A stretch of DNA of 32,000 nucleotides from Candidatus Heimdallarchaeota archaeon (GTDB taxonomy: Archaea > Asgardarchaeota > Heimdallarchaeia > JABLTI01), in the NCBI GenBank assembly GCA_030614005.1, contig JAUWKS010000017.1, positions 26,214 through 58,213 of the forward strand. Direction: 5' to 3'. A program made the position numbers and the translations under genes. The notes beneath the pieces were generated by a model. It saw nothing but the letters and a program-made list of their open reading frames with translations. It did no database searches and was not told the DNA's origin. Position 1 is the stretch's first letter. The number at the start of each line of letters is the position of its first letter. Below are positions 3-22,376 of the stretch, in pieces.

Positions 3-1835
3 GGTGTTAATTTTCTTATTCTATCTAATCCAGTAAATATCATTGGCGATGGAAAGATCCAAGAAGTAGAATTAGTTAGAATGGAGCTTGGTGAACCAGA
101 TGAAAGTGGTCGGTGTCGACCAATTGTTTGTGATGGGTCAAATTATTGCGTTGATGTAGACACAGTCATCTTTGCAATTGGACAAAGACCAGATTATGAG
201 CTCTTAGCTCAACATGGTTTGGAACATCATAGCTGGGGTGGTGCAAGATATGATGAAATCACATATGAAACAAACCTCCCAGGAGTGTTTGTTGGTGGAG
301 ATGTAGCAATTGGTGCAGCCACCGTCATTGAAGCAATTGCAACGTCTAAAAATGCAGCGCAAATGATTGACTTTTACCTCAAAGGTACTCTACCTAAAAT
401 CCGAGAGATTATTAAAGAACCTTCGAAACATCTTGATGAAATTTATTCTGATGAAAAGCTCAAAGAATTCCTCTTGAAATATTATCCCTATAATCATTGG
501 AAGAAAGTTACTGAAGAAGATTACAAAGATAGAAAACGACAAGAAAGAGCAAAAACAAAGCTCCTTCCAGCAAAGGAACGAGCAAAAACGTTCGATGAAG
601 TTGAACTAACTCATTCAGAAGAAGACATTTTGAAGGAAACTGAAAGATGTATGTCTTGTGGTTGTCTTGATTCTTTTGATTGCAAATTGAGAGAATACTC
701 TATGATGTATAATGCTAAACAAGATACTTTTGAAGGAGAATTACAATCCGATGTTGTAGATGAATCACATCCTCATGTTATTCTTGATAACAACAAGTGT
801 ATTTTGTGTGGCAGATGTATTAATTTAACTCACGAAATAACTGGCGAAGGGTTAATTGATAATCTCAACCGAGGATTTACAACTAAAAATGGCCCCCCTC
901 CAGGAACTAAGCTTGGTGAAGTTAAAGGTGATTTCATCGGTCAATTTGTTGATGAATGTCCAACAGGTGCATTTGCACTTACAACTCCTTATCCAAAAGA
1001 TGGTCCTTGGAATGTTACTCCCAAACCAACTGTCTGTAATGACTGTGGTATGGGTTGTGAAATGAATATTGATATCTACAAAGGAATCCCAGTAAACGTT
1101 TCAACTATTGATAACTCTTGGAATCATGGTTTAGTTTGTGATAAACCAAGATTTGGCAGAAGTTGGGAGAAAAGCGTAGAAAAGCCTATGCAAAAAGATG
1201 GCAGTAAATTCAAAGAAATCTCTGATGATAAAGCTAAAGCTATTCTCAAAGATCATCTCGAGAGTTTAGCCATTGTATTAACTCCCAGTGTAACGAATGA
1301 TGAAGCACAAGAGTTAATGAAATTTGCAAAGGAACATAATTTTGCTATTGGAGCTATCTACGACGAAGGTATTTCTACAACCAAATTTGCTACTATTTTT
1401 ACTAGCAAACGTATACAATTGGATGTTGATTTATCAGACTATCCCGTATTGAAAACATTTATCCACATTGCAAAGAAACAAGGTGCAATCATTACTAACG
1501 AAGAACCAGATATTGCTATAGTTAATGCACCAGCAAAACCAAAAGACATTCCAACAATTATTATGCACAAAGGACTGAATGAAGTAGGACTTATGCAGCT
1601 CGGTTTGAAAATGATTCCAAAAGCAAAGAATTACCTTGTTATTGGATCATCTGATAAAAAGTTCAAAGGATTCACCATATCTATGGGTGAAAACAAGAAC
1701 GCCGATTTAGTCTTACCCCTACCAGCTTGGTTGAATAGAACCGGCAAAGTAGTTACTTCAGAAGGTCGTGAATTAGAAGTTAAACAGGTCTTAGATGGAC
1801 CGTCCATTATGAAGATTTTGCAATCTTACTTCTAA
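3..1835 (+). CDS. 5'-truncated GltD-like flavoprotein fused to NuoG/FdhA-like Fe-S domains and a degenerate molybdopterin-oxidoreductase C-terminus (NsoC/SfrAB-like NAD(P)H oxidoreductase)
   Basis: The frame is open from base 3 (GVNFLILSNPVNIIGDGKIQEVELVRMELGEPDESGR), so the true start lies upstream of the window. GltD motifs: VDTVIFAIGQ, GVFVGGDV. Fe-S motifs: CMSCGC-x5-C, CILCGRC...CPTGA, CNDCGMGC...C. The C-terminal ADLVLPLPAW..TG...SEGR resembles the Mo-bisPGD family tail. Confidence 0.8.
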   Translation, partial: GVNFLILSNPVNIIGDGKIQEVELVRMELGEPDESGRCRPIVCDGSNYCVDVDTVIFAIGQRPDYELLAQHGLEHHSWGGARYDEITYETNLPGVFVGGDVAIGAATVIEAIATSKNAAQMIDFYLKGTLPKIREIIKEPSKHLDEIYSDEKLKEFLLKYYPYNHWKKVTEEDYKDRKRQERAKTKLLPAKERAKTFDEVELTHSEEDILKETERCMSCGCLDSFDCKLREYSMMYNAKQDTFEGELQSDVVDESHPHVILDNNKCILCGRCINLTHEITGEGLIDNLNRGFTTKNGPPPGTKLGEVKGDFIGQFVDECPTGAFALTTPYPKDGPWNVTPKPTVCNDCGMGCEMNIDIYKGIPVNVSTIDNSWNHGLVCDKPRFGRSWEKSVEKPMQKDGSKFKEISDDKAKAILKDHLESLAIVLTPSVTNDEAQELMKFAKEHNFAIGAIYDEGISTTKFATIFTSKRIQLDVDLSDYPVLKTFIHIAKKQGAIITNEEPDIAIVNAPAKPKDIPTIIMHKGLNEVGLMQLGLKMIPKAKNYLVIGSSDKKFKGFTISMGENKNADLVLPLPAWLNRTGKVVTSEGRELEVKQVLDGPSIMKILQSYF

Positions 1836-1882
1836 TTTCTTTTTTCATTTAATTGAAAGGACATCATTGTGATTTCCTTTCA
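1836..1882 (+). terminator. T-tract plus imperfect hairpin downstream of the oxidoreductase
   Basis: TTTCTTTTTT follows the stop directly. Then TGAAAGGA(1854-1861)-C-ATCA-TTG-TGAT-T-TCCTTTCA(1875-1882) forms an 8+4 bp stem. Confidence 0.4.
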
Positions 1883-2072
1883 TAAAATCTTTTATTCTAA
1901 AAATCAAATTTTTCCTATTTTAATAAGTTTAGAGTTAGTCTTTTTTAACTAGAAAGCATTATTTATTTAATTAATTCATTTTAAGGAATTGATATTTCAA
2001 CATTTGATTAAGTAAACCAAATCTTTAATGAACATTCTTGAGATTAATGAATATATTACGAAGTGAAATTAA

Positions 2073-3680
2073 ATGGCAGAAGAAGTAAACCTTGATTTAT
2101 TGGATTTAAAAGTGATGTATCCAAATACAATGCTATTAGATTATATAAATAAAAAAGAATCAATGTCAAAATTCTTTGGAGGCGTTTATGATAAAATGCA
2201 TCCAGTCAAATTCCGAGGAGATCGAGGAATAATAAAGGATATTTTAATGAAATATAATAAATCAATTAATGCTCAAAGTAAGGTTTTCGAAAATATTGAG
2301 TCAATTGAAAACGAAGATGTAAAATTTGTTATTACTGGTCAACAACCAGGCCTTTTCACTGGGCCCATGTATACCATCTATAAAACATTCTCAGCAATAA
2401 ATTATGCAAAAAAGTATTCTACTGATGATGTAAAGCTTGTACCATTATTTTGGAATGCTTCTGAAGATCACGATGTTGAAGAAGTAGATAATATTTGGAT
2501 TTTAAATAAAAAAAATGATGTTAAGCATATTAAATTCGATAGTAGTGCTTTATTAGGAAAGAGTTTGGAGAATGTCCAAATTGAACATAACCATTTTGAT
2601 ACTCTTCTTACTAAAATGAAAAGTTCGTTTGTAGAAACAGAATTTTCTGACTCCATTTTTGATATGTTAAGTGGCATACTCAAGAAATCAGAAAAATGGG
2701 GCGAGTTCTTTAGCAGGACACTTTCTTTCTTGATGGGAGAATGGGGCCTTATTTTACTTGAGCCTAAAATTCTACGTCCTCATTTGAAAGATTATTTCAC
2801 GGTAGTTCTTAATAACACAGTAAAGTATAACTCTATCTTCCAAAAAACTACTGATGGTTTGACAGATTTAAGTTACAAACCTAAAATGCATAAGAAAGAA
2901 AATATCGCAGGATTATTCTACATTGATGAGGAATTAAATAGATTAACTATAACACTTAAAGAAAAAGGAATGTATGAATTATCTGATGGTAAAACATTTA
3001 CTCGAGAAGAAATTCTTAATGAAGTTCAAACTCATCCTGAGCAATTCAGTACTAATGCTATTTTTCGACCACTTGCTCAAGATATAATGATTCCAACACA
3101 TGTTTTTGTTGGAGGTCCATCAGAAATTGGTTACCATATCCAAATCAAAGATTTGTATAAGGAGTTTGATTTAACTCAACCTAATGTTGTTTTTAGAATG
3201 GGTGCAACAGTAATTGAAAGGCATATTAATAAAATAATTGAGAAATACAACTTTTCAATCACGGAATTGCGCGATTTGAATAGATTGAGCTCAAAGCTTG
3301 TTGCTAGTGAAAGCGAATATAAATTGCAAGGGCATTTCAATAATATTTCTGAAATATTAGATACGATGAATACAGAGCTAAATGATTATAATAAAGAACT
3401 TGGCTCTCGAGTTCAACATCGTAAAAAATCCATAATGAAAGAATTAGAAAATATTGAGAAGATGTATATTAAATATGTCAAAAATGACAACCAACTTTTG
3501 ACCAATCAATTAACTAAGACTCGAGCTTATTTATTCCCAAGTGATAAACCTCAAGAACGAATGTTTAATATCTTCCAATATCTTAACAAGTATTCATTAA
3601 CTCTCCTAGATTGTATGAGAAATCTCTTAACAAAAGATCAACCAGGAAAACATGTGGTATTAAAATGTTGGATGTTTTAG
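2073..3680 (+). CDS. bshC: Bacillithiol biosynthesis cysteine-adding enzyme BshC
   Basis: 535 aa. Family motifs ITGQQPGLFTGPMYTIYK, PLFWNASEDHD, NAIFRPLAQD, GGPSEIGY and C-terminal P..KPQERMFN, preceded by a helical/coiled-coil region. Confidence 0.93.
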   Translation: MAEEVNLDLLDLKVMYPNTMLLDYINKKESMSKFFGGVYDKMHPVKFRGDRGIIKDILMKYNKSINAQSKVFENIESIENEDVKFVITGQQPGLFTGPMYTIYKTFSAINYAKKYSTDDVKLVPLFWNASEDHDVEEVDNIWILNKKNDVKHIKFDSSALLGKSLENVQIEHNHFDTLLTKMKSSFVETEFSDSIFDMLSGILKKSEKWGEFFSRTLSFLMGEWGLILLEPKILRPHLKDYFTVVLNNTVKYNSIFQKTTDGLTDLSYKPKMHKKENIAGLFYIDEELNRLTITLKEKGMYELSDGKTFTREEILNEVQTHPEQFSTNAIFRPLAQDIMIPTHVFVGGPSEIGYHIQIKDLYKEFDLTQPNVVFRMGATVIERHINKIIEKYNFSITELRDLNRLSSKLVASESEYKLQGHFNNISEILDTMNTELNDYNKELGSRVQHRKKSIMKELENIEKMYIKYVKNDNQLLTNQLTKTRAYLFPSDKPQERMFNIFQYLNKYSLTLLDCMRNLLTKDQPGKHVVLKCWMF

Positions 3681-4348
3681 TTTTTGGCCCCCATCCTGAT
3701 GATGCCGAACTTGGTGCAGGTGGAGCAATAGCAAAAGCTGTTGCAGAAGGATTGAAAGTAGGCATTATTGATCTAACTGCTGGTGAAATGGGTACACTCG
3801 GTACTAAGGAAATTCGTTTGAAAGAAGCAGAAAGTGCTTCAAAAATACTTGGTGTGAAATTCAGAGAAAATCTAGGATTACCAGATGGATATATTGGTTT
3901 AGATATTTCACAAGAAGACATTTTTGCAGTAGCAAAGAAAATTCGTCAATATCAACCTAAAATTGTCTTAGCACCATATTGGGATGACAGGCACCCAGAT
4001 CATGCTGCTAGTTCGGAGATAATCACTAAAGCAGCTCATTATGCAAAATTGAAAAAATTTAATCTTGAACATCCGCAACATAAAATTCAACAACTTATCT
4101 ATTATGAATTAAATGGTCAATTTACTCCATCATATATTATAGATGTAAGCGACTTTTTTGAACAAAAAAAAGAAGCAATAATGAGTCATAAATCTCAATT
4201 TAAAGAGTTTTCAAAAGAATATCTTCCTTTTCCTTTAGTTGAAAGATGTGCCTATTATGGGTCATTAATTAATGCCTCTTATGGTGAGGCCTTTATGGTA
4301 AAAGGCTCGTTAAAAGTTGATAAATGGGAAGTCATTATAAATAAATGA
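3665..4348 (+). CDS. bshB1: N-acetylglucosaminyl-malate deacetylase BshB1 (PIG-L family)
   Basis: The likely start is ATG 3665 (MLDVLVFGPHPDDAELGAGG), overlapping the bshC stop. Zn-binding HPDD and HPDH motifs, DLTAGEMGT.GT...R..EA, and C-terminal YGEAF. Confidence 0.9.
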   Translation: MLDVLVFGPHPDDAELGAGGAIAKAVAEGLKVGIIDLTAGEMGTLGTKEIRLKEAESASKILGVKFRENLGLPDGYIGLDISQEDIFAVAKKIRQYQPKIVLAPYWDDRHPDHAASSEIITKAAHYAKLKKFNLEHPQHKIQQLIYYELNGQFTPSYIIDVSDFFEQKKEAIMSHKSQFKEFSKEYLPFPLVERCAYYGSLINASYGEAFMVKGSLKVDKWEVIINK

Positions 4349-4375
4349 TAATTTACTATATCCGAGGATATTACG

Positions 4376-5470
4376 ATGAAAATTGGTATAATTAATTATC
4401 CCACATTTGGTGGTAGTGGAATTGTTGGTACTGAGTTGGGATTAGAGCTTCAAAAAAGAGGACACGAAGTTCATTTTATTTCCTATCAAATACCTGAACG
4501 ATTAAAACTAGAAGAGGATTACATTTTTCATGAAGTCAATATTTTATCCTATCCTCTCTTTAAGTATAAACCTTATACGATTATCTTGGCATCTCTATTG
4601 CACAAGTTAGTTAATGAACATGAATTGGACATTCTCCACGGCCATTACGCAATCCCCCATGCGACATCATTGTATCTTGCAAAATTAAGTAATGATAAAG
4701 CGAAAATTATATCGACAATTCATGGTTCTGATATGCATCTTCTAGGTCTTGATGATGCGTACAAACCGATTTTAGTTAATAGTTTAAATAATCATGATGC
4801 ATTAACGACGGTATCCAAATGGATGAGACAATTCGTAGTAGACAATTACGATATGGAAAAAGATATTGATGTAATATATAATTTCGTAAACCCCAAGAAA
4901 TTTTCCAACATTAAAAAACCAGTAAAAGAGGAAGTTGTTTTTTGCCATGTTTCTAACTTTAGAAAAGTCAAGCGCTCACCAGATATTGTTAAAGCATTTG
5001 CAATCGAAGCAGAGAAATATAATCATATCAGATTAGAAATGATAGGAGAAGGTCCTGAACGAGAATATTGTCGAGATTTAGCAATATCTTTAGGCATTAA
5101 TGATAAGGTTGTGTTTAGAGGGAGCCTTCTTAATGTCCCTCGTGTTTTATGTTTTACTGATGTTTTTGTTATTCCCTCAGAAAAAGAAAGTTTTGGTTTG
5201 GCTGCTTTAGAAGCAATGGCTTGTAGTATACCAGTTATTTCTTCAAACGCAGGTGGTTTACCTGAAGTTGTTGAACATGAAAAGACTGGTTTTGTTATTG
5301 AACCGGGAGATATTGATGCTTTAGCGAAATATATGAACATTATGATTGAAGATGAACCTTTAAGAAAGAAATTAGGAAAAGCTTCTGCTCAACGTGCTAA
5401 GGGAGTATTCCATCCTGATAAAATCATCCCTCAATATGAATCATTATACAAGAAAGTGATTGAAAAATAA
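4376..5470 (+). CDS. bshA: N-acetyl-alpha-D-glucosaminyl L-malate synthase BshA (GT4)
   Basis: BshA-diagnostic segments MKIGI..YPTFGGSG.V.TELG, HGHYAIPHA, TIHGSD, HVSNFRKVKR and EKESFGLAALEAMAC. Confidence 0.93.
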   Translation: MKIGIINYPTFGGSGIVGTELGLELQKRGHEVHFISYQIPERLKLEEDYIFHEVNILSYPLFKYKPYTIILASLLHKLVNEHELDILHGHYAIPHATSLYLAKLSNDKAKIISTIHGSDMHLLGLDDAYKPILVNSLNNHDALTTVSKWMRQFVVDNYDMEKDIDVIYNFVNPKKFSNIKKPVKEEVVFCHVSNFRKVKRSPDIVKAFAIEAEKYNHIRLEMIGEGPEREYCRDLAISLGINDKVVFRGSLLNVPRVLCFTDVFVIPSEKESFGLAALEAMACSIPVISSNAGGLPEVVEHEKTGFVIEPGDIDALAKYMNIMIEDEPLRKKLGKASAQRAKGVFHPDKIIPQYESLYKKVIEK

Positions 5471-5488
5471 AATATTAAATGGAAACAA

Positions 5489-6151
5489 TTATCGTTTCCA
5501 TAAAGTTATTTTTGTAATTACAATGACGATTAGTGGGACACCAACTATTATTCCTCCAGCCAACCACCAAGTCCAATTTTGAGGTGCTTGCTGTGGTATA
5601 TCCAAACGGGGCGTTGAAGGTACCGGTGATATTTCAAATGAAAATGCTTGTCCAATAAAAGTTTCCCATTCATTGTTATGATAGTAGGAAACATTCAAAT
5701 TATTAATTCCAACAAAACCTTCTTCTGTACAATTTGCTGCAAACCAGAATGAGTGAAAAGAATCAGGTACGATTTTTGCCCAAGTGACATTAACATACCC
5801 TACATCCCAGTAGAATAAAGGTTCAGTATTATTTACATCAAGATAATAATCTGTGGAATTGTAAAAGGTCATATTATTTGAAACACCATAAACATCTGAG
5901 ATATTGAATGAAGCTGTCGCATCAAAACTTATTGTAGTGTTATACATACTTTCTGTACTATTGAGTGCATTTCTAAATACAACTGTAGTATTTACAAATT
6001 GCCCTACATAAGGATTAATTATATCAGGTGCCATATATACTATTACATTATTTAATGGCGTCTCAGCAGTAGCTGTTCCCACACCATTTACAAACAATAG
6101 TATTGTAATTGCGATCGTTGCTGTGATAGGTAATAGTTTCTTATACTTCAA
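5489..6151 (-). CDS. Secreted, C-terminally anchored surface glycoprotein (hypothetical)
   Basis: N-terminal signal peptide, beta-rich body, C-terminal hydrophobic helix followed by KITLWKR. 11 N-X-S/T sequons in 220 aa. GGTGA upstream on the minus strand. Confidence 0.7.
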   Translation of the reverse strand: MKYKKLLPITATIAITILLFVNGVGTATAETPLNNVIVYMAPDIINPYVGQFVNTTVVFRNALNSTESMYNTTISFDATASFNISDVYGVSNNMTFYNSTDYYLDVNNTEPLFYWDVGYVNVTWAKIVPDSFHSFWFAANCTEEGFVGINNLNVSYYHNNEWETFIGQAFSFEISPVPSTPRLDIPQQAPQNWTWWLAGGIIVGVPLIVIVITKITLWKR

Positions 6152-10702: not shown

Positions 10703-11998
10703 TTGAATCCATCCAAGATTAAAAAAATACAATTTATTAAAGATCCAATCCATGGGTATATTTTCATAGATGATTTAGTAAGAGAACTTATAGATACTAG
10801 ATATTTTCAGCGATTAAGAAGAATAAAACAACTCTCAGGATCGGAATATGTTTATCCAGGAGCAAATCATACTCGTTTCGAGCATTCTCTTGGAGTTAGC
10901 TATTTAGGAGAAAAAATGGCTCGTTCAATTACTAACGATGAAAACGTAACTCTTTCTGAAAAGGATATTAATTACGTAAAAATTGCTGGTTTATTACATG
11001 ACATAGGTCATGGTCCTTTCTCACATACATTTGAAGCACTTCTATCTAAAGCAGACAAACATCACGAGGATCTTTCAAGATGGATTATTCAAAAAAGTGA
11101 AATCGCTGACATCCTGAAAACTAATGGAGTGAATGTTGATATTGTAACAGGGTTAATCAATGGAAATAAGACTATTAAAGGCAAGGGGTATCTGAATCAG
11201 ATTATTTCGGGCGCTTGTGATGTAGATAAAATGGATTTCATTGTTCGAGATTCCTATCATACAGGAGCAGAATATGGTCAAGTAGATATTATGAGAATAC
11301 TCTATACAATGGGTGTATTTGAAGGAAATTTAGCAGTAAATTATTCAGCCTTACCTGCATTTGAAGCGTTTCTTATCGCTCGAGTAGAATCCTTTAGAAC
11401 AATTTATTTCCACAAGGTTTCGAGGGCATCTCAACTTATGATCGTTCGTGCTATGGAATTAGCTGAAAAAGAGCTTGGTTTACTAGATTTCAAAACACCT
11501 GAAGATTATCTAAAATTAGATGATTTTACAGTTTGGACTAAGCTATTAGAGAGTAAATCATCTAAAAAAATAATGAAGAAATTAGCTGATAGAAAACTCC
11601 TGAAGGTTGCTTTTGAAAGGGAATTTATGACAAGAGATGAATTTTTACAATCAACTTTAATCAAAGAAGATTATCGTCAAAGATTGATTGAGGAAATTGC
11701 TAATAAAGCGAAACTAAAAGCAGAAGACATATTCATCGATATTCCAACACTCCCTAGTGTTCCTTATTCTCATTCAATAGATTTGCCAGCTTATGAAGTG
11801 CCTATGTTTAGAAGAGATGGAGTAAGTCAAGAGAAAAAAGAAGTCAAAATTAGAAACGTATCAAGAATATTCGAATCCCTAATGGGTATGCTGTATATTT
11901 TTAGAGTTTATTCATTTGAAGAAAATAGAGAACAAGTGAGAAAGGCAGCAATAGAGGTTTTTGGTGAAAAGTCAATTGGAACTCAAATATCATTTTGA
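10703..11998 (+). CDS. HD-domain phosphohydrolase (SAMHD1/dNTP triphosphohydrolase-like)
   Basis: IKDPIHGYI, FQRLRRIKQL, YPGANHTRFEHSLGV, LLHDIGHGPFSH, DVDKMDFIVRDS, IYFHKVSR. Confidence 0.9.
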   Translation: MNPSKIKKIQFIKDPIHGYIFIDDLVRELIDTRYFQRLRRIKQLSGSEYVYPGANHTRFEHSLGVSYLGEKMARSITNDENVTLSEKDINYVKIAGLLHDIGHGPFSHTFEALLSKADKHHEDLSRWIIQKSEIADILKTNGVNVDIVTGLINGNKTIKGKGYLNQIISGACDVDKMDFIVRDSYHTGAEYGQVDIMRILYTMGVFEGNLAVNYSALPAFEAFLIARVESFRTIYFHKVSRASQLMIVRAMELAEKELGLLDFKTPEDYLKLDDFTVWTKLLESKSSKKIMKKLADRKLLKVAFEREFMTRDEFLQSTLIKEDYRQRLIEEIANKAKLKAEDIFIDIPTLPSVPYSHSIDLPAYEVPMFRRDGVSQEKKEVKIRNVSRIFESLMGMLYIFRVYSFEENREQVRKAAIEVFGEKSIGTQISF

Positions 11999-12410: not shown

Positions 12411-14879
12411 TCAGTCTTCTGGTTGATATTTCATTTTTATTATCTCAAGTATTTCTTTAGCCATTTTCTTTCCTATCCCTTTAAGCTCTTGAAGTTCTTC
12501 AGCAGAAGCATTGAAGAAATTTTCCAGAGAATCAAATTTTTTCAAAATACGTCTGGCAAGAACAGTGTTTATTTTTGGGAATCCAGCAACAATAAACTCT
12601 AACAATAATGCAGGATCAGTAGGAGCTTTTTCATTTCGAATTAAAGGAGTTTTATCAGATTGTAATTGTTCTCTTTTTGCAATATTTCGTAAAAATCTTG
12701 CAGTATCCTTTGGGTTTCTACTCCAAATTAAACCAATGTCAAAATTAATCACAATAGATGAAATTGCACCTCTAATTGCTTCAGGATTCAAGGCTCTATG
12801 ACCGTATAATGTTTCTCCTTCGATTATTAAAATTGGTTTTTCATAGTTTCTTTTGAGAGCAATTAATTGAGGAAAGAGACGACCGTCAATAATACTTTGA
12901 CTTAAATCTGCAACATCTTTTCTTTCGACACCAACACGAGAACTTAGAATATAATCAGCAATCTCCAGCTGTTGTAAATCTATTTTTACTCCTAGTTCAG
13001 TTAATTCCTTTGCAATACCTGATTTTGATTCTCGAGTGTCAACAAAAATTTTAATTTGTTGATCTTTTGTTGGTTTATCGTCAGGGGTTGTTTTAAAATC
13101 TAGCAATGCAGAGAATTCATTTTCTGAAGGTTCAATTATTTCTGTAATTTCTCCAGTTTCAGCTTCAACCTCCAACTTGCTTAATGCTTCATCAGAGAAA
13201 ATTGAAAGGTCATCAAGTCCCCCCTCATCTAATACTTTGTCTTCCTCTATTGGTTTTTCATCATTAGAAGATGAAGCTGCAGCGAAGAAATCTTCCATTG
13301 TTCTTTGTTGCAAATCAATTTGAGGTTTACGTATTTTCTCTAAATCTCTAAGATTTCTTTTCATTTGTCTTTCTTTATGTCTTGCAGCCCAGAAATACCC
13401 TTCATCACGAGTTCCTTTCGTTATTAGCACTACAACTCTACCAGCTCTATTCCTACCCGTTCTTCCTCTACGTTGAATATTCCTTATCGCTGAAGGCACA
13501 CAATCATAAAAAGTGACTAAATCACATTCAGATATATCTAAGCCTTCCTCACCAACACTGGTTGCAACTAAGCAGTTTAATTCGCCATCACGGAATTGTT
13601 GCATTATTTCGAGTTGCTTCTTTTGAGAGAAACCTTTATCACCAGATTTTGAAGCTTGTCCAACAAATCTAGAAGCTTTAACACCTTTCAATTTATTCAA
13701 AGTATCTGCCAGCAATTTTGCTGAATTTCTATATTGAGTGAAAACCAATATTCTCGAATCAGGACTTGTAGTAATAGATTCTTGAACGATCTTTTCCAAT
13801 TCAGGGATTTTAGGATGCTCTAAACCTTCTTCCCGGATTTGATGTGAAACATCATATGCGACAACCAGCGCATCCTCATTTATCAAATTTATCAGAGTGC
13901 GAGTTGCTTTTGACCCTTTAGCTTCTTTTCTCATTTTATCAAAATATTTGAGCAATGAGCTAATGCTTTGTGTTTCCAATAGCTCTAAAGCATGTGTTAA
14001 TCTAATAGAAGAACCAACTAAGCCTAATGCAAGATAAAGTTCAGAAGGGTCTTCGGTCTGATCAAACTGTTTTGTTATAATTGGAGGAAGCTGAAGTAAA
14101 TCGCGGCGTTTAATATTTACTCCAGATGTTTTTATCCAACCTAGTCGTTTCAATTCCTTTAGCTTTCTTGACAGAGAGCCTTCAAGAAGTGATTTGATCC
14201 TTAGAAATTTTTTCGGAAGTTCAACGTGAATCCAATCCACATCAGTTTTTTGAACGTAAGGTTGAACATCTTTTGAAGTGTCTAATCGGGTCTCAACATT
14301 TCTTATTGAAAGATTTTCACAAACATGATTGATTTTTTCTTTATCAGAACCAGGAGAAGCCGTTATCGCAAAAATAAGTTTGTTTTTTGCTTTTCTCATA
14401 TATTGTTTAGCAACATAAACATAAGCGTACTCTCCAACTGCACGATGGGCCTCATCAACACCCAGCAATGAACATCTAGACAAGTTCAAGCGCTCAGCTA
14501 GTAAATCGTTCTCAACTACTTGTGGTGTGGCAATTATTATTTGCCCTTGTTTCCAAATTTTTCTTCGTTTTTCTGGAGCAGTTGAACCTGAGAGCATCAC
14601 AATTTCTTCATCTATTATATTGAAGACTTTTTGGAATGTTTTGAGATGCTGTTCAACTAAGGGTTTTGTTGGTGCCATAATAAGAATAAAAGAATCTGGA
14701 TGTTGTTCCATTCTTCTTGCAGTAAGTAAAGCTAGAATAATCGTTTTTCCTAAACCGGTAGGTAGAACAACTAGAGTATTATTTGAGAGACTACTCGCAA
14801 AAATCGTTTGTTGGTAAAGACGAGCTTCAATGGTGCCCGGTTTCAGATATTTATGTTCTACGAACTTCTTTTCACTCAT
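12411..14879 (-). CDS. hef: Hef (FANCM/XPF-like) SF2 helicase-ERCC4 nuclease
   Basis: LPTGLGKT, DEAHRA, TASPG, ATSVGEEGLDI, QRRGRTGR; acidic linker; VDTRE, GVERKDVADL, GRLFPQL; C-terminal HhH (LKGIGKKMA). Confidence 0.95.
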   Translation of the reverse strand: MSEKKFVEHKYLKPGTIEARLYQQTIFASSLSNNTLVVLPTGLGKTIILALLTARRMEQHPDSFILIMAPTKPLVEQHLKTFQKVFNIIDEEIVMLSGSTAPEKRRKIWKQGQIIIATPQVVENDLLAERLNLSRCSLLGVDEAHRAVGEYAYVYVAKQYMRKAKNKLIFAITASPGSDKEKINHVCENLSIRNVETRLDTSKDVQPYVQKTDVDWIHVELPKKFLRIKSLLEGSLSRKLKELKRLGWIKTSGVNIKRRDLLQLPPIITKQFDQTEDPSELYLALGLVGSSIRLTHALELLETQSISSLLKYFDKMRKEAKGSKATRTLINLINEDALVVAYDVSHQIREEGLEHPKIPELEKIVQESITTSPDSRILVFTQYRNSAKLLADTLNKLKGVKASRFVGQASKSGDKGFSQKKQLEIMQQFRDGELNCLVATSVGEEGLDISECDLVTFYDCVPSAIRNIQRRGRTGRNRAGRVVVLITKGTRDEGYFWAARHKERQMKRNLRDLEKIRKPQIDLQQRTMEDFFAAASSSNDEKPIEEDKVLDEGGLDDLSIFSDEALSKLEVEAETGEITEIIEPSENEFSALLDFKTTPDDKPTKDQQIKIFVDTRESKSGIAKELTELGVKIDLQQLEIADYILSSRVGVERKDVADLSQSIIDGRLFPQLIALKRNYEKPILIIEGETLYGHRALNPEAIRGAISSIVINFDIGLIWSRNPKDTARFLRNIAKREQLQSDKTPLIRNEKAPTDPALLLEFIVAGFPKINTVLARRILKKFDSLENFFNASAEELQELKGIGKKMAKEILEIIKMKYQPED

Positions 14880-21579: not shown

Positions 21580-22263
21580 TCATTTTTCTGCAATTATGAA
21601 TAAATTGTGCAATGACTTTTTACTGGAAACGATTCTTAAATTTGCGTTTAGAATTAAATCTTCTAATTCTTGTTTCTCGAATAGATAGTAATATCTCATT
21701 ATTTTTGTTTTGTCAGGCATTGTCCATGGAACAAGAACGTCCTTTTCTCCTTGATCAATGATTTCCTTCAAATCTTCCTTTTCAAATCTAGGATGAGTTC
21801 TTAACCAGCAACTTACGAGCACACGTCCCTTACTTTGCATTATTCGAACAACTTCTTGAAGAGCTTGTTTTCTTTTCTCTTGACTATCCAAATGGTGAAA
21901 AACAGCTATCATTACAATGCGATTAAAAGATTCATCCTTAAAAGGTAAAGAATCAATATCAGCATTAATTACACCTGATAGAAGTTCTGTTACAGAAGAG
22001 AGCTCATTTTTTAATGCTGTTTTCAAAATGTTAAAGGAGATATCCATGCCAATAGTGTCTATTCCTTTTTCCAAAAATATTCTTGAATGACGTCCATTTC
22101 CACAACCTAAATCTAACGCTAGATTGTTTGTGTCTATTGTATCAATAAACTCCGTAACATCCCCCCACGGTGCTTTTCTTTTAGTATCAAAACTTACAGC
22201 AATCTGATCATACACTTTTGAGATGGGTTGATATTCTTTTGATTTTTCTTCGGGAGGAGTCAT
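21580..22263 (-). CDS. trm9: Trm9/ALKBH8-like class I SAM methyltransferase (tRNA U34 carboxymethyl methyltransferase-like)
   Basis: VYDQIAVSFD.KR.APW, LDLGCGNGRH, IAVFHHL, DVLVPW and RYYYLF...ELE parallel Trm9/ALKBH8 motifs. The start is uncertain (22263, 22272 or 22293). Confidence 0.65.
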   Translation of the reverse strand: MTPPEEKSKEYQPISKVYDQIAVSFDTKRKAPWGDVTEFIDTIDTNNLALDLGCGNGRHSRIFLEKGIDTIGMDISFNILKTALKNELSSVTELLSGVINADIDSLPFKDESFNRIVMIAVFHHLDSQEKRKQALQEVVRIMQSKGRVLVSCWLRTHPRFEKEDLKEIIDQGEKDVLVPWTMPDKTKIMRYYYLFEKQELEDLILNANLRIVSSKKSLHNLFIIAEK

Positions 22264-22376
22264 TTGTAACATGAAAACCTTAGCAATGTTCATTTTAAAT
22301 TATTTGTTGTTAAAAGGGTGTAAATTACATTTGATATAAAACAATATACTTAAGTTACTTTTTCCATAGTCTTACT

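Follow-up and report, generated by a model that had tools for sequence, protein, structure and literature searches.

A canonical bshC-bshB1-bshA operon with predicted bacillithiol synthesis in a Heimdallarchaeia archaeon

The stretch of DNA considered here, referred to as the window, comprises 32,000 nucleotides (nt) and represents the final 32 kb of a 58,213-bp contig (JAUWKS010000017.1) from the metagenome-assembled genome (MAG) of a Heimdallarchaeia archaeon of marine and cold-seep sediment. Positions 2073-5470 of the window hold a complete canonical set of the genes bshC, bshB1 and bshA, whose bacterial homologs direct the synthesis of the thiol bacillithiol (Cys-GlcN-malate; GlcN, glucosamine). 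The reading put forward here, with a probability of roughly 0.78, is that these genes form a genuine, chromosomally fixed operon of the archaeon, that this operon is predicted to mediate bacillithiol synthesis, and that it is a canonical cassette acquired as a block.

All three proteins exceed the curated equivalog cut-offs of NCBIfam: BshC reaches 386.4 bits (TIGR03998, cut-off 265.8), BshB1 236.6 bits (TIGR04001, cut-off 182.5), and BshA 405.9 bits (TIGR03999, cut-off 273.7). Models of related enzymes score lower, i.e., BshB2 (66.4 bits), Mca (31.9) and MshB (28.7) for BshB1, and TIGR03088 as the runner-up (139 bits) and MshA (76 bits) for BshA. That three neighboring genes each pass the equivalog cut-off for one and the same pathway is far beyond chance. 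The domain architectures agree with this assignment: in BshC, the Rossmann-like and coiled-coil domains are both present (PF10079 at residues 12-376, PF24850 at residues 378-530), and residues 7-528 align end to end with the structure of Bacillus subtilis BshC (4WBD, E-value 5.5e-51). BshB1 contains a PIG-L domain and aligns over its full length with the structures 1UAN (5.9e-51), 2IXD and 6P2T (BshB1), while BshA displays the two-domain fold of GT-B/GT4 glycosyltransferases (N-terminal PF13439, C-terminal PF00534) and aligns over its full length with the BshA structures 2JJM, 3MBO and 5D00 (E-values of about 1e-84 to 1e-82). The metal-site motifs of the LmbE/PIG-L type in BshB1 (PHPDD at residues 9-13, HPDH at 110-113) recur in the alignments with 2IXD and 1UAN. 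In BshA, the motifs HYAIPHA (residues 90-96), HVSNFRKVKR (191-200) and E-x7-E (271-279) are present.

The genes are co-oriented and tightly packed. The frame of bshB1 opens, at its longest, with a TTG at position 3611; counted from the ATG at 3665, which precedes the PHPDD motif, bshB1 overlaps bshC by 16 nt (3665-3680), and a gap of 27 nt (4349-4375) separates it from bshA. Overlapping and nearly abutting frames imply a single transcript. An RNA scan of the window revealed neither a tRNA nor an Rfam family. The arrangement described in the initial annotation of this DNA, including the length of overlap and gap, was exact, the two longer BshA motifs that it singled out are intact, and its claim of a complete pathway is borne out by the model scores.

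The host is an Asgard archaeon, as the initial annotation had supposed, and belongs to the Heimdallarchaeia. The source genome (G000; 3.6 Mb in 126 contigs, 90% complete, 3.4% estimated contamination) encodes an ESCRT-II subunit (PF05871, 72.8 bits; matched by 0 of 14 control genomes) and actin-family proteins (97.7 bits), and its closest named records are MAGs of “Candidatus Heimdallarchaeota archaeon.” The contig itself carries archaeal genes for the Hef nuclease (923 bits), Pth2, archaeal RecJ, geranylgeranyl reductase and a NusA-like KH protein, besides TruD, UppS and a Roadblock/LC7 protein. The bsh cluster sits 28 kb inside the contig with archaeal genes on either flank, and its G+C content of 0.319 lies inside the spread of the genome (0.336 ± 0.012). 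Five further genomes have kept the order bshC-bshB-bshA, a gene for a 220-aa protein on the opposite strand, Roadblock, UppS and NYN, at BshC identities of 57-87%, while the upstream side of the operon varies among these relatives. The genomes that share this neighborhood come from different projects, and metagenomes of cold seeps and marine sediments from several studies contain nearly the same sequence. In addition, both junctions of the operon are spanned by contigs of two separate studies, namely X1 (covering 1497-2170 and 4658-6053) and X2 (1200-2542 and 3066-5865, with even depth). G+C content, synteny and bridging contigs together exclude a chimeric bacterial insert for practical purposes.

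The organism labels under which NCBI lists contigs with this family's operon are in conflict: Heimdallarchaeota, Asgard group, Thorarchaeota, Bathyarchaeia and Zixibacteria all occur (e.g., P0126, P0010, P0125). One such contig, L020 (DATKZI010000037.1, identical with G009:C37), is labeled Bathyarchaeia, yet it shares the synteny of the window, and the identities of its BshC, BshB and BshA to those of the window are the same as for locus L011; this locus belongs to G009, whose genus is that of the window. MAG labels are not reliable at face value.

The distribution of the operon was followed in 300 genomes of the phylum, in which the family of the window is coded f1. BshA passes its cut-off in 133 of the 300, canonical BshC in only 10, which correspond to the f1 family and a single contig of 5.3 kb that was binned with a different family. 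Within the window's genus, canonical BshC is encoded by nine of ten genomes, and the exception is 64% complete. The other families with BshA possess instead a tight trio, here called the Asgard-type trio, in which BshA (above the cut-off at 292-397 bits) is joined by a divergent PIG-L deacetylase (57-62 bits) and by a BshC-like protein, likewise divergent, that scores 65-98 bits and is about 540-590 aa long. The trio resembles the canonical cassette in that the same three protein superfamilies are tightly clustered, presumably for a related Cys-GlcN thiol; it differs in that the BshC-like and PIG-L proteins stay far below the curated cut-offs, that gene order and orientation vary among families, and that it forms a separate clade with 100/100 support. 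The BshC of the window does not belong to this type, given its canonical score of 386 bits and its position outside the Asgard-type clade, and a copy of the trio was not found in the window's genome.

The contig with the sole canonical BshC outside f1 in this sample (L039; G078:C95, 5,331 bp) carries just bshA-bshB-bshC; its genes are 48-68% identical to those of the window and nest within the f1 clade, and either mis-binning or a further transfer could account for it.

Phylogenetic analysis separates the two types. The BshC tree unites Asgard-type proteins of three classes on a long branch with 100/100 support and sets the f1 proteins apart in a clade of their own, likewise with 100/100 support, though f1 shares its class with families f2, f4 and f6. 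The f1 proteins group with Bathyarchaeota-labeled, Theionarchaea-type and two unassigned sequences (87/87) among unnamed, presumably bacterial representatives. Approximately unbiased (AU) tests with groups set by taxonomy, run when the tree had already been seen, reject a single clade of f1 and the Asgard-type proteins of the same class for BshC (delta log-likelihood 324, p-AU 1e-86) as well as for BshA (p-AU 0.002). The f1 cassette is a xenologue of the Asgard-type trio in its sister families, and vertical kinship with its class-mates is rejected. Within its own family, the cassette is vertically inherited, and its acquisition predates the family.

Where, then, does the canonical type occur elsewhere? 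A tightly packed bshC-bshB-bshA cluster, with all three proteins above cut-off, is encoded in a closed 1.68-Mb genome labeled Bathyarchaeota (CP070683.1, L044), and the same order is found in a Theionarchaea-labeled MAG and on the contigs L045 and L049. Gene order and packing of these cassettes are identical to those in the window, and they include the nearest BshC relatives outside the family, those grouped with f1 in the tree. Identities to the window amount to 31-35% for BshC, 42-48% for BshB and 45-47% for BshA, and the flanking genes are unlike those of the window. The cassette was most likely acquired as a ready-made block of three genes, of a type shared with Bathyarchaeota- and Theionarchaea-labeled records. 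Block acquisition, as proposed in the initial annotation, holds in outline, as indicated by the AU rejection for BshC and BshA and by a gene order common to other archaea. The event is, however, older than the family and not specific to this archaeon, and the nearest BshC relatives are archaeal. The suggested phylogenies did separate f1 from its class-mates but did not resolve a donor. Outside the family, BshA has its nearest matches in Bacteroidota (44-48%), BshB in Firmicutes and among Theionarchaea-type sequences (41-49%), and BshC among Bathyarchaeota-type sequences (31-36%); as these disagree across the three genes, no donor can be named.

The bacillithiol system of bacteria (B. subtilis, B. 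anthracis, Staphylococcus aureus; 5D00, 2JJM, 6P2T, 2IXD, 4WBD) employs the same enzyme families at equivalog level, and its BshA, BshB1 and BshC share domain architectures and catalytic motifs with the window proteins, so that the predicted chemistry is the same. By homology to the characterized bacterial enzymes, BshA would transfer N-acetylglucosamine (GlcNAc) from UDP-GlcNAc to L-malate, BshB1, a zinc deacetylase, would convert the resulting GlcNAc-malate to GlcN-malate, and BshC would add cysteine to yield bacillithiol as the putative product. The bacterial system differs in its organization, since neither of the two bacterial loci sampled keeps the genes together, one having bshB-bshA but no bshC (a Firmicutes MAG), the other bshC alone (Ignavibacteriaceae), whereas the window combines them in one bshC-bshB-bshA operon of an archaeal host. 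The bsh genes are split in Bacillus as well. A second difference concerns recycling: the Bacillus-type system includes YpdA/Bdr and BrxA/B/C, none of which was found in the window's genome.

Bacillithiol might act as the redox buffer of the archaeon, as the initial annotation suggested; more broadly, roles in detoxification, in metal handling or as a thiol buffer are conceivable for an organism that is apparently anaerobic. Several proteins of the source genome could be partners of the thiol: a DinB_2 protein (30.7 bits, cut-off 24.8; no NCBIfam assignment), thioredoxin-reductase-like flavoproteins (with candidate genes at G000:C11 and C35), and a CoADR/Nox-like flavoprotein (CoA-disulfide reductase/NADH oxidase; 304.7 bits, cut-off 578.8). 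Given that YpdA was not found in this genome, the latter is a candidate for the reduction of low-molecular-weight disulfides. Another DinB_2 protein, which weakly matches mycothiol transferase, is encoded immediately upstream of the operon in CP070683.1, with a rubrerythrin nearby. A DinB_2 gene adjoins the cassette only in this genome among the other archaea, and its position hints at a thiol S-transferase partner. A candidate glutamate-cysteine ligase in the source genome was dismissed, the sole GCS2 match (49 residues, 26.7 bits) lying inside a 1081-aa frame and being treated as spurious.

A bearing of the operon on oxygen tolerance in the lineage nearest to eukaryotes had also been envisaged in the initial annotation. 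A search of the 90%-complete genome yielded neither a heme-copper oxidase nor a cytochrome bd oxidase. The lack of a detectable terminal oxidase and the occurrence in anoxic sediment imply that the thiol would serve an apparent anaerobe, and the link to oxygen tolerance is unsupported. As the cassette is moreover confined to one family, the locus by itself is silent on oxygen tolerance at the origin of eukaryotes.

Several observations weigh against a canonical cassette that was acquired as a block for bacillithiol synthesis. Support for the grouping of the archaeal canonical BshC is only moderate (87/87), and AU tests do not reject a clade of f1 with all Asgard-type proteins (BshC, p 0.34; BshA, p 0.48), which makes the position of the root uncertain. 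The BshA tree is a trichotomy of f1, the Asgard type, and the Bathyarchaeota type plus Bacteroidota; since f1 with the Bathyarchaeota type (p 0.25) and f1 with the Bathyarchaeota type and Bacteroidota (p 0.49) are not rejected either, BshA names no donor. The bacterial sampling behind donor and direction of transfer is unnamed or narrow. With regard to function, no in vitro reconstitution of the cysteine-adding reaction of BshC is known to us from any organism. YpdA/Bdr (TIGR04018) was not found in the source genome, which is only 90% complete (the best match, at 89 bits versus a cut-off of 339.9, is thioredoxin-reductase-like), and neither were BrxA/B (PF06491) and BrxC/YtxJ (TIGR04019), both of which are matched by the B. 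subtilis control. The Bacillus-type recycling system is therefore missing, and YpdA was likewise not found in the Bathyarchaeota- and Theionarchaea-labeled genomes with the cassette.

The unrejected clade of f1 with all Asgard-type proteins, together with the wide occurrence of BshA in the phylum, would fit a cluster that is ancestral to Asgard archaea, with f1 evolving slowly and retaining a canonical-looking form, all other lineages diverging, and no separate acquisition taking place. This scenario is quite improbable: the Asgard-type BshC-like clade unites three classes and excludes f1, AU tests reject vertical grouping at class level for BshC and BshA, and the two types differ in gene order and orientation. 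Moreover, BshC and BshB of f1 are 31-48% identical to the Bathyarchaeota- and Theionarchaea-type proteins versus 21-31% to those of class-mates. The product of the operon might also be a bacillithiol variant or another GlcN-based compound, e.g., N-methyl-bacillithiol or a compound with a different acceptor acid. Bacterial variants do exist, such as the N-methyl-bacillithiol made by NmbA (bioRxiv 10.1101/2025.07.06.663066), the window BshC is only about 25-35% identical to relatives outside the family, and the missing recycling enzymes of the Bacillus system would be consistent with a different product. A variant nevertheless appears unlikely, as all three enzymes pass cut-offs that were built for bacillithiol synthesis, BshA retains the motifs common to solved BshA structures, and no methyltransferase is encoded in or beside the operon, the nearest (21580-22293) having generic matches only. 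For NmbA itself (N-methyl-bacillithiol synthase), no dedicated-model match was obtained, and the methyltransferases checked are generic. Finally, a typically bacterial pathway in a MAG of 126 contigs with 3.4% estimated contamination raises the suspicion of a bacterial contaminant or a chimeric insert. The chance of this is negligible in view of archaeal genes on both flanks at a site 28 kb inside a 58-kb contig, a G+C content within the genome spread, the same neighborhood in at least five diverged genomes from different projects, and two studies' assemblies that span both junctions. A genuine archaeal operon with bacillithiol as its predicted product is therefore the preferred reading.

A more far-reaching hypothesis is that the canonical cassette was built from genes that are dispersed in the sampled bacteria and circulates among archaea of anoxic sediments (Bathyarchaeia, Theionarchaea and one family of Heimdallarchaeia), that it displaced an older Asgard-type cluster in f1, and that authentic bacillithiol is made and recycled by a reductase other than YpdA. 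This proposal is tentative, and we would give it somewhat less than an even chance; if true, it would describe the first bacillithiol system outside Bacteria.

That archaea possess bsh genes is already known, and the locus is a confirmation rather than a discovery. NCBI annotation names close relatives in Heimdallarchaeota and Asgard MAGs BshC, “BshB1” and “BshA,” and a survey reported 39 archaeal matches each for BshA and BshC, mostly from Asgard archaea, only two archaeal homologs of YpdA, and no detection of bacillithiol in any archaeon to date (Rawat and Maupin-Furlow, 2020; PMC7278568). The annotation and the survey together make the central claim prior knowledge. A RefSeq-based preprint of 2025 asserts, in contrast, that the full pathway is absent from archaea (bioRxiv 10.1101/2025.07.06.663066), presumably because MAGs are largely outside RefSeq. 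Modestly new are the observations that f1 carries the canonical and not the Asgard-type cassette, that this cassette is common to other archaeal lineages, and that YpdA was found in none of them. Since all three enzymes pass the equivalog cut-offs, the locus is among the cleanest archaeal cases and well suited to proving, in a heterologous host, that archaea can make bacillithiol. Furthermore, the canonical cassette and the divergent Asgard-type trio provide a natural experiment on the role of BshC.

Table 1. Features of the window and of loci used for comparison (window positions unless a locus is named).
Feature	Position	Strand	Length	Basis or remark
bshC, putative cysteine-adding enzyme	2073-3680	+	535 aa	TIGR03998, PF10079, PF24850, 4WBD
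bshB1, GlcNAc-malate deacetylase	3665-4348	+	227 aa from ATG 3665	TIGR04001, PIG-L
bshA, UDP-GlcNAc:L-malate glycosyltransferase	4376-5470	+	364 aa	TIGR03999, GT4 domains
AT-rich spacer 5' of bshC, presumed operon promoter region	1836-2072		237 nt	position and absence of an open reading frame
Oxidoreductase, C-terminal part	3-1835	+	983 aa (whole protein)	extends upstream to G000:C20:25098
Protein without family assignment	5489-6151	-	220 aa	directly 3' of bshA
HD and HD-associated-region protein	10703-11998	+
Hef helicase-nuclease	12411-14879	-		full length
DinB_2 protein of the source genome	G000:C93:271-759
CoADR/Nox-like flavoprotein of the source genome	G000:C94:10037-11341	+	464 aa
DinB_2 protein of CP070683.1	L044:5338-5823	-
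Asgard-type trios	L026:5864-8643, L032:5931-8733, L035:6205-9852, L036:5129-8778
Asgard-type trios, continued	L034:5214-9143, L041:5501-9198, L038:189-3941

The gene upstream of the operon encodes an oxidoreductase that combines an FAD/NAD(P) domain resembling the small subunit of glutamate synthase with a NuoG-type ferredoxin domain and molybdopterin Fe4S4 domains; genes for proteins of 185 and 522 aa precede it. A role of this protein as a disulfide reductase was considered and rejected, as it adjoins bshC only in L017 and L020 among the relatives examined, and the models that it matches are those of the glutamate-synthase small subunit and of the NuoG type. It is probably unrelated to the operon. 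Downstream lies the gene for the 220-aa protein, which matches no Pfam or NCBIfam family; every relative examined encodes it immediately 3' of bshA (27-83% identity). A hydrophobic segment at the N-terminus, a membrane anchor at the C-terminus and numerous N-x-S/T sequons give it the look of a glycosylated protein of the cell surface. Further along the window, the HD protein has weak dGTPase-like matches and lies beside the gene for Hef; both are ordinary archaeal genes.

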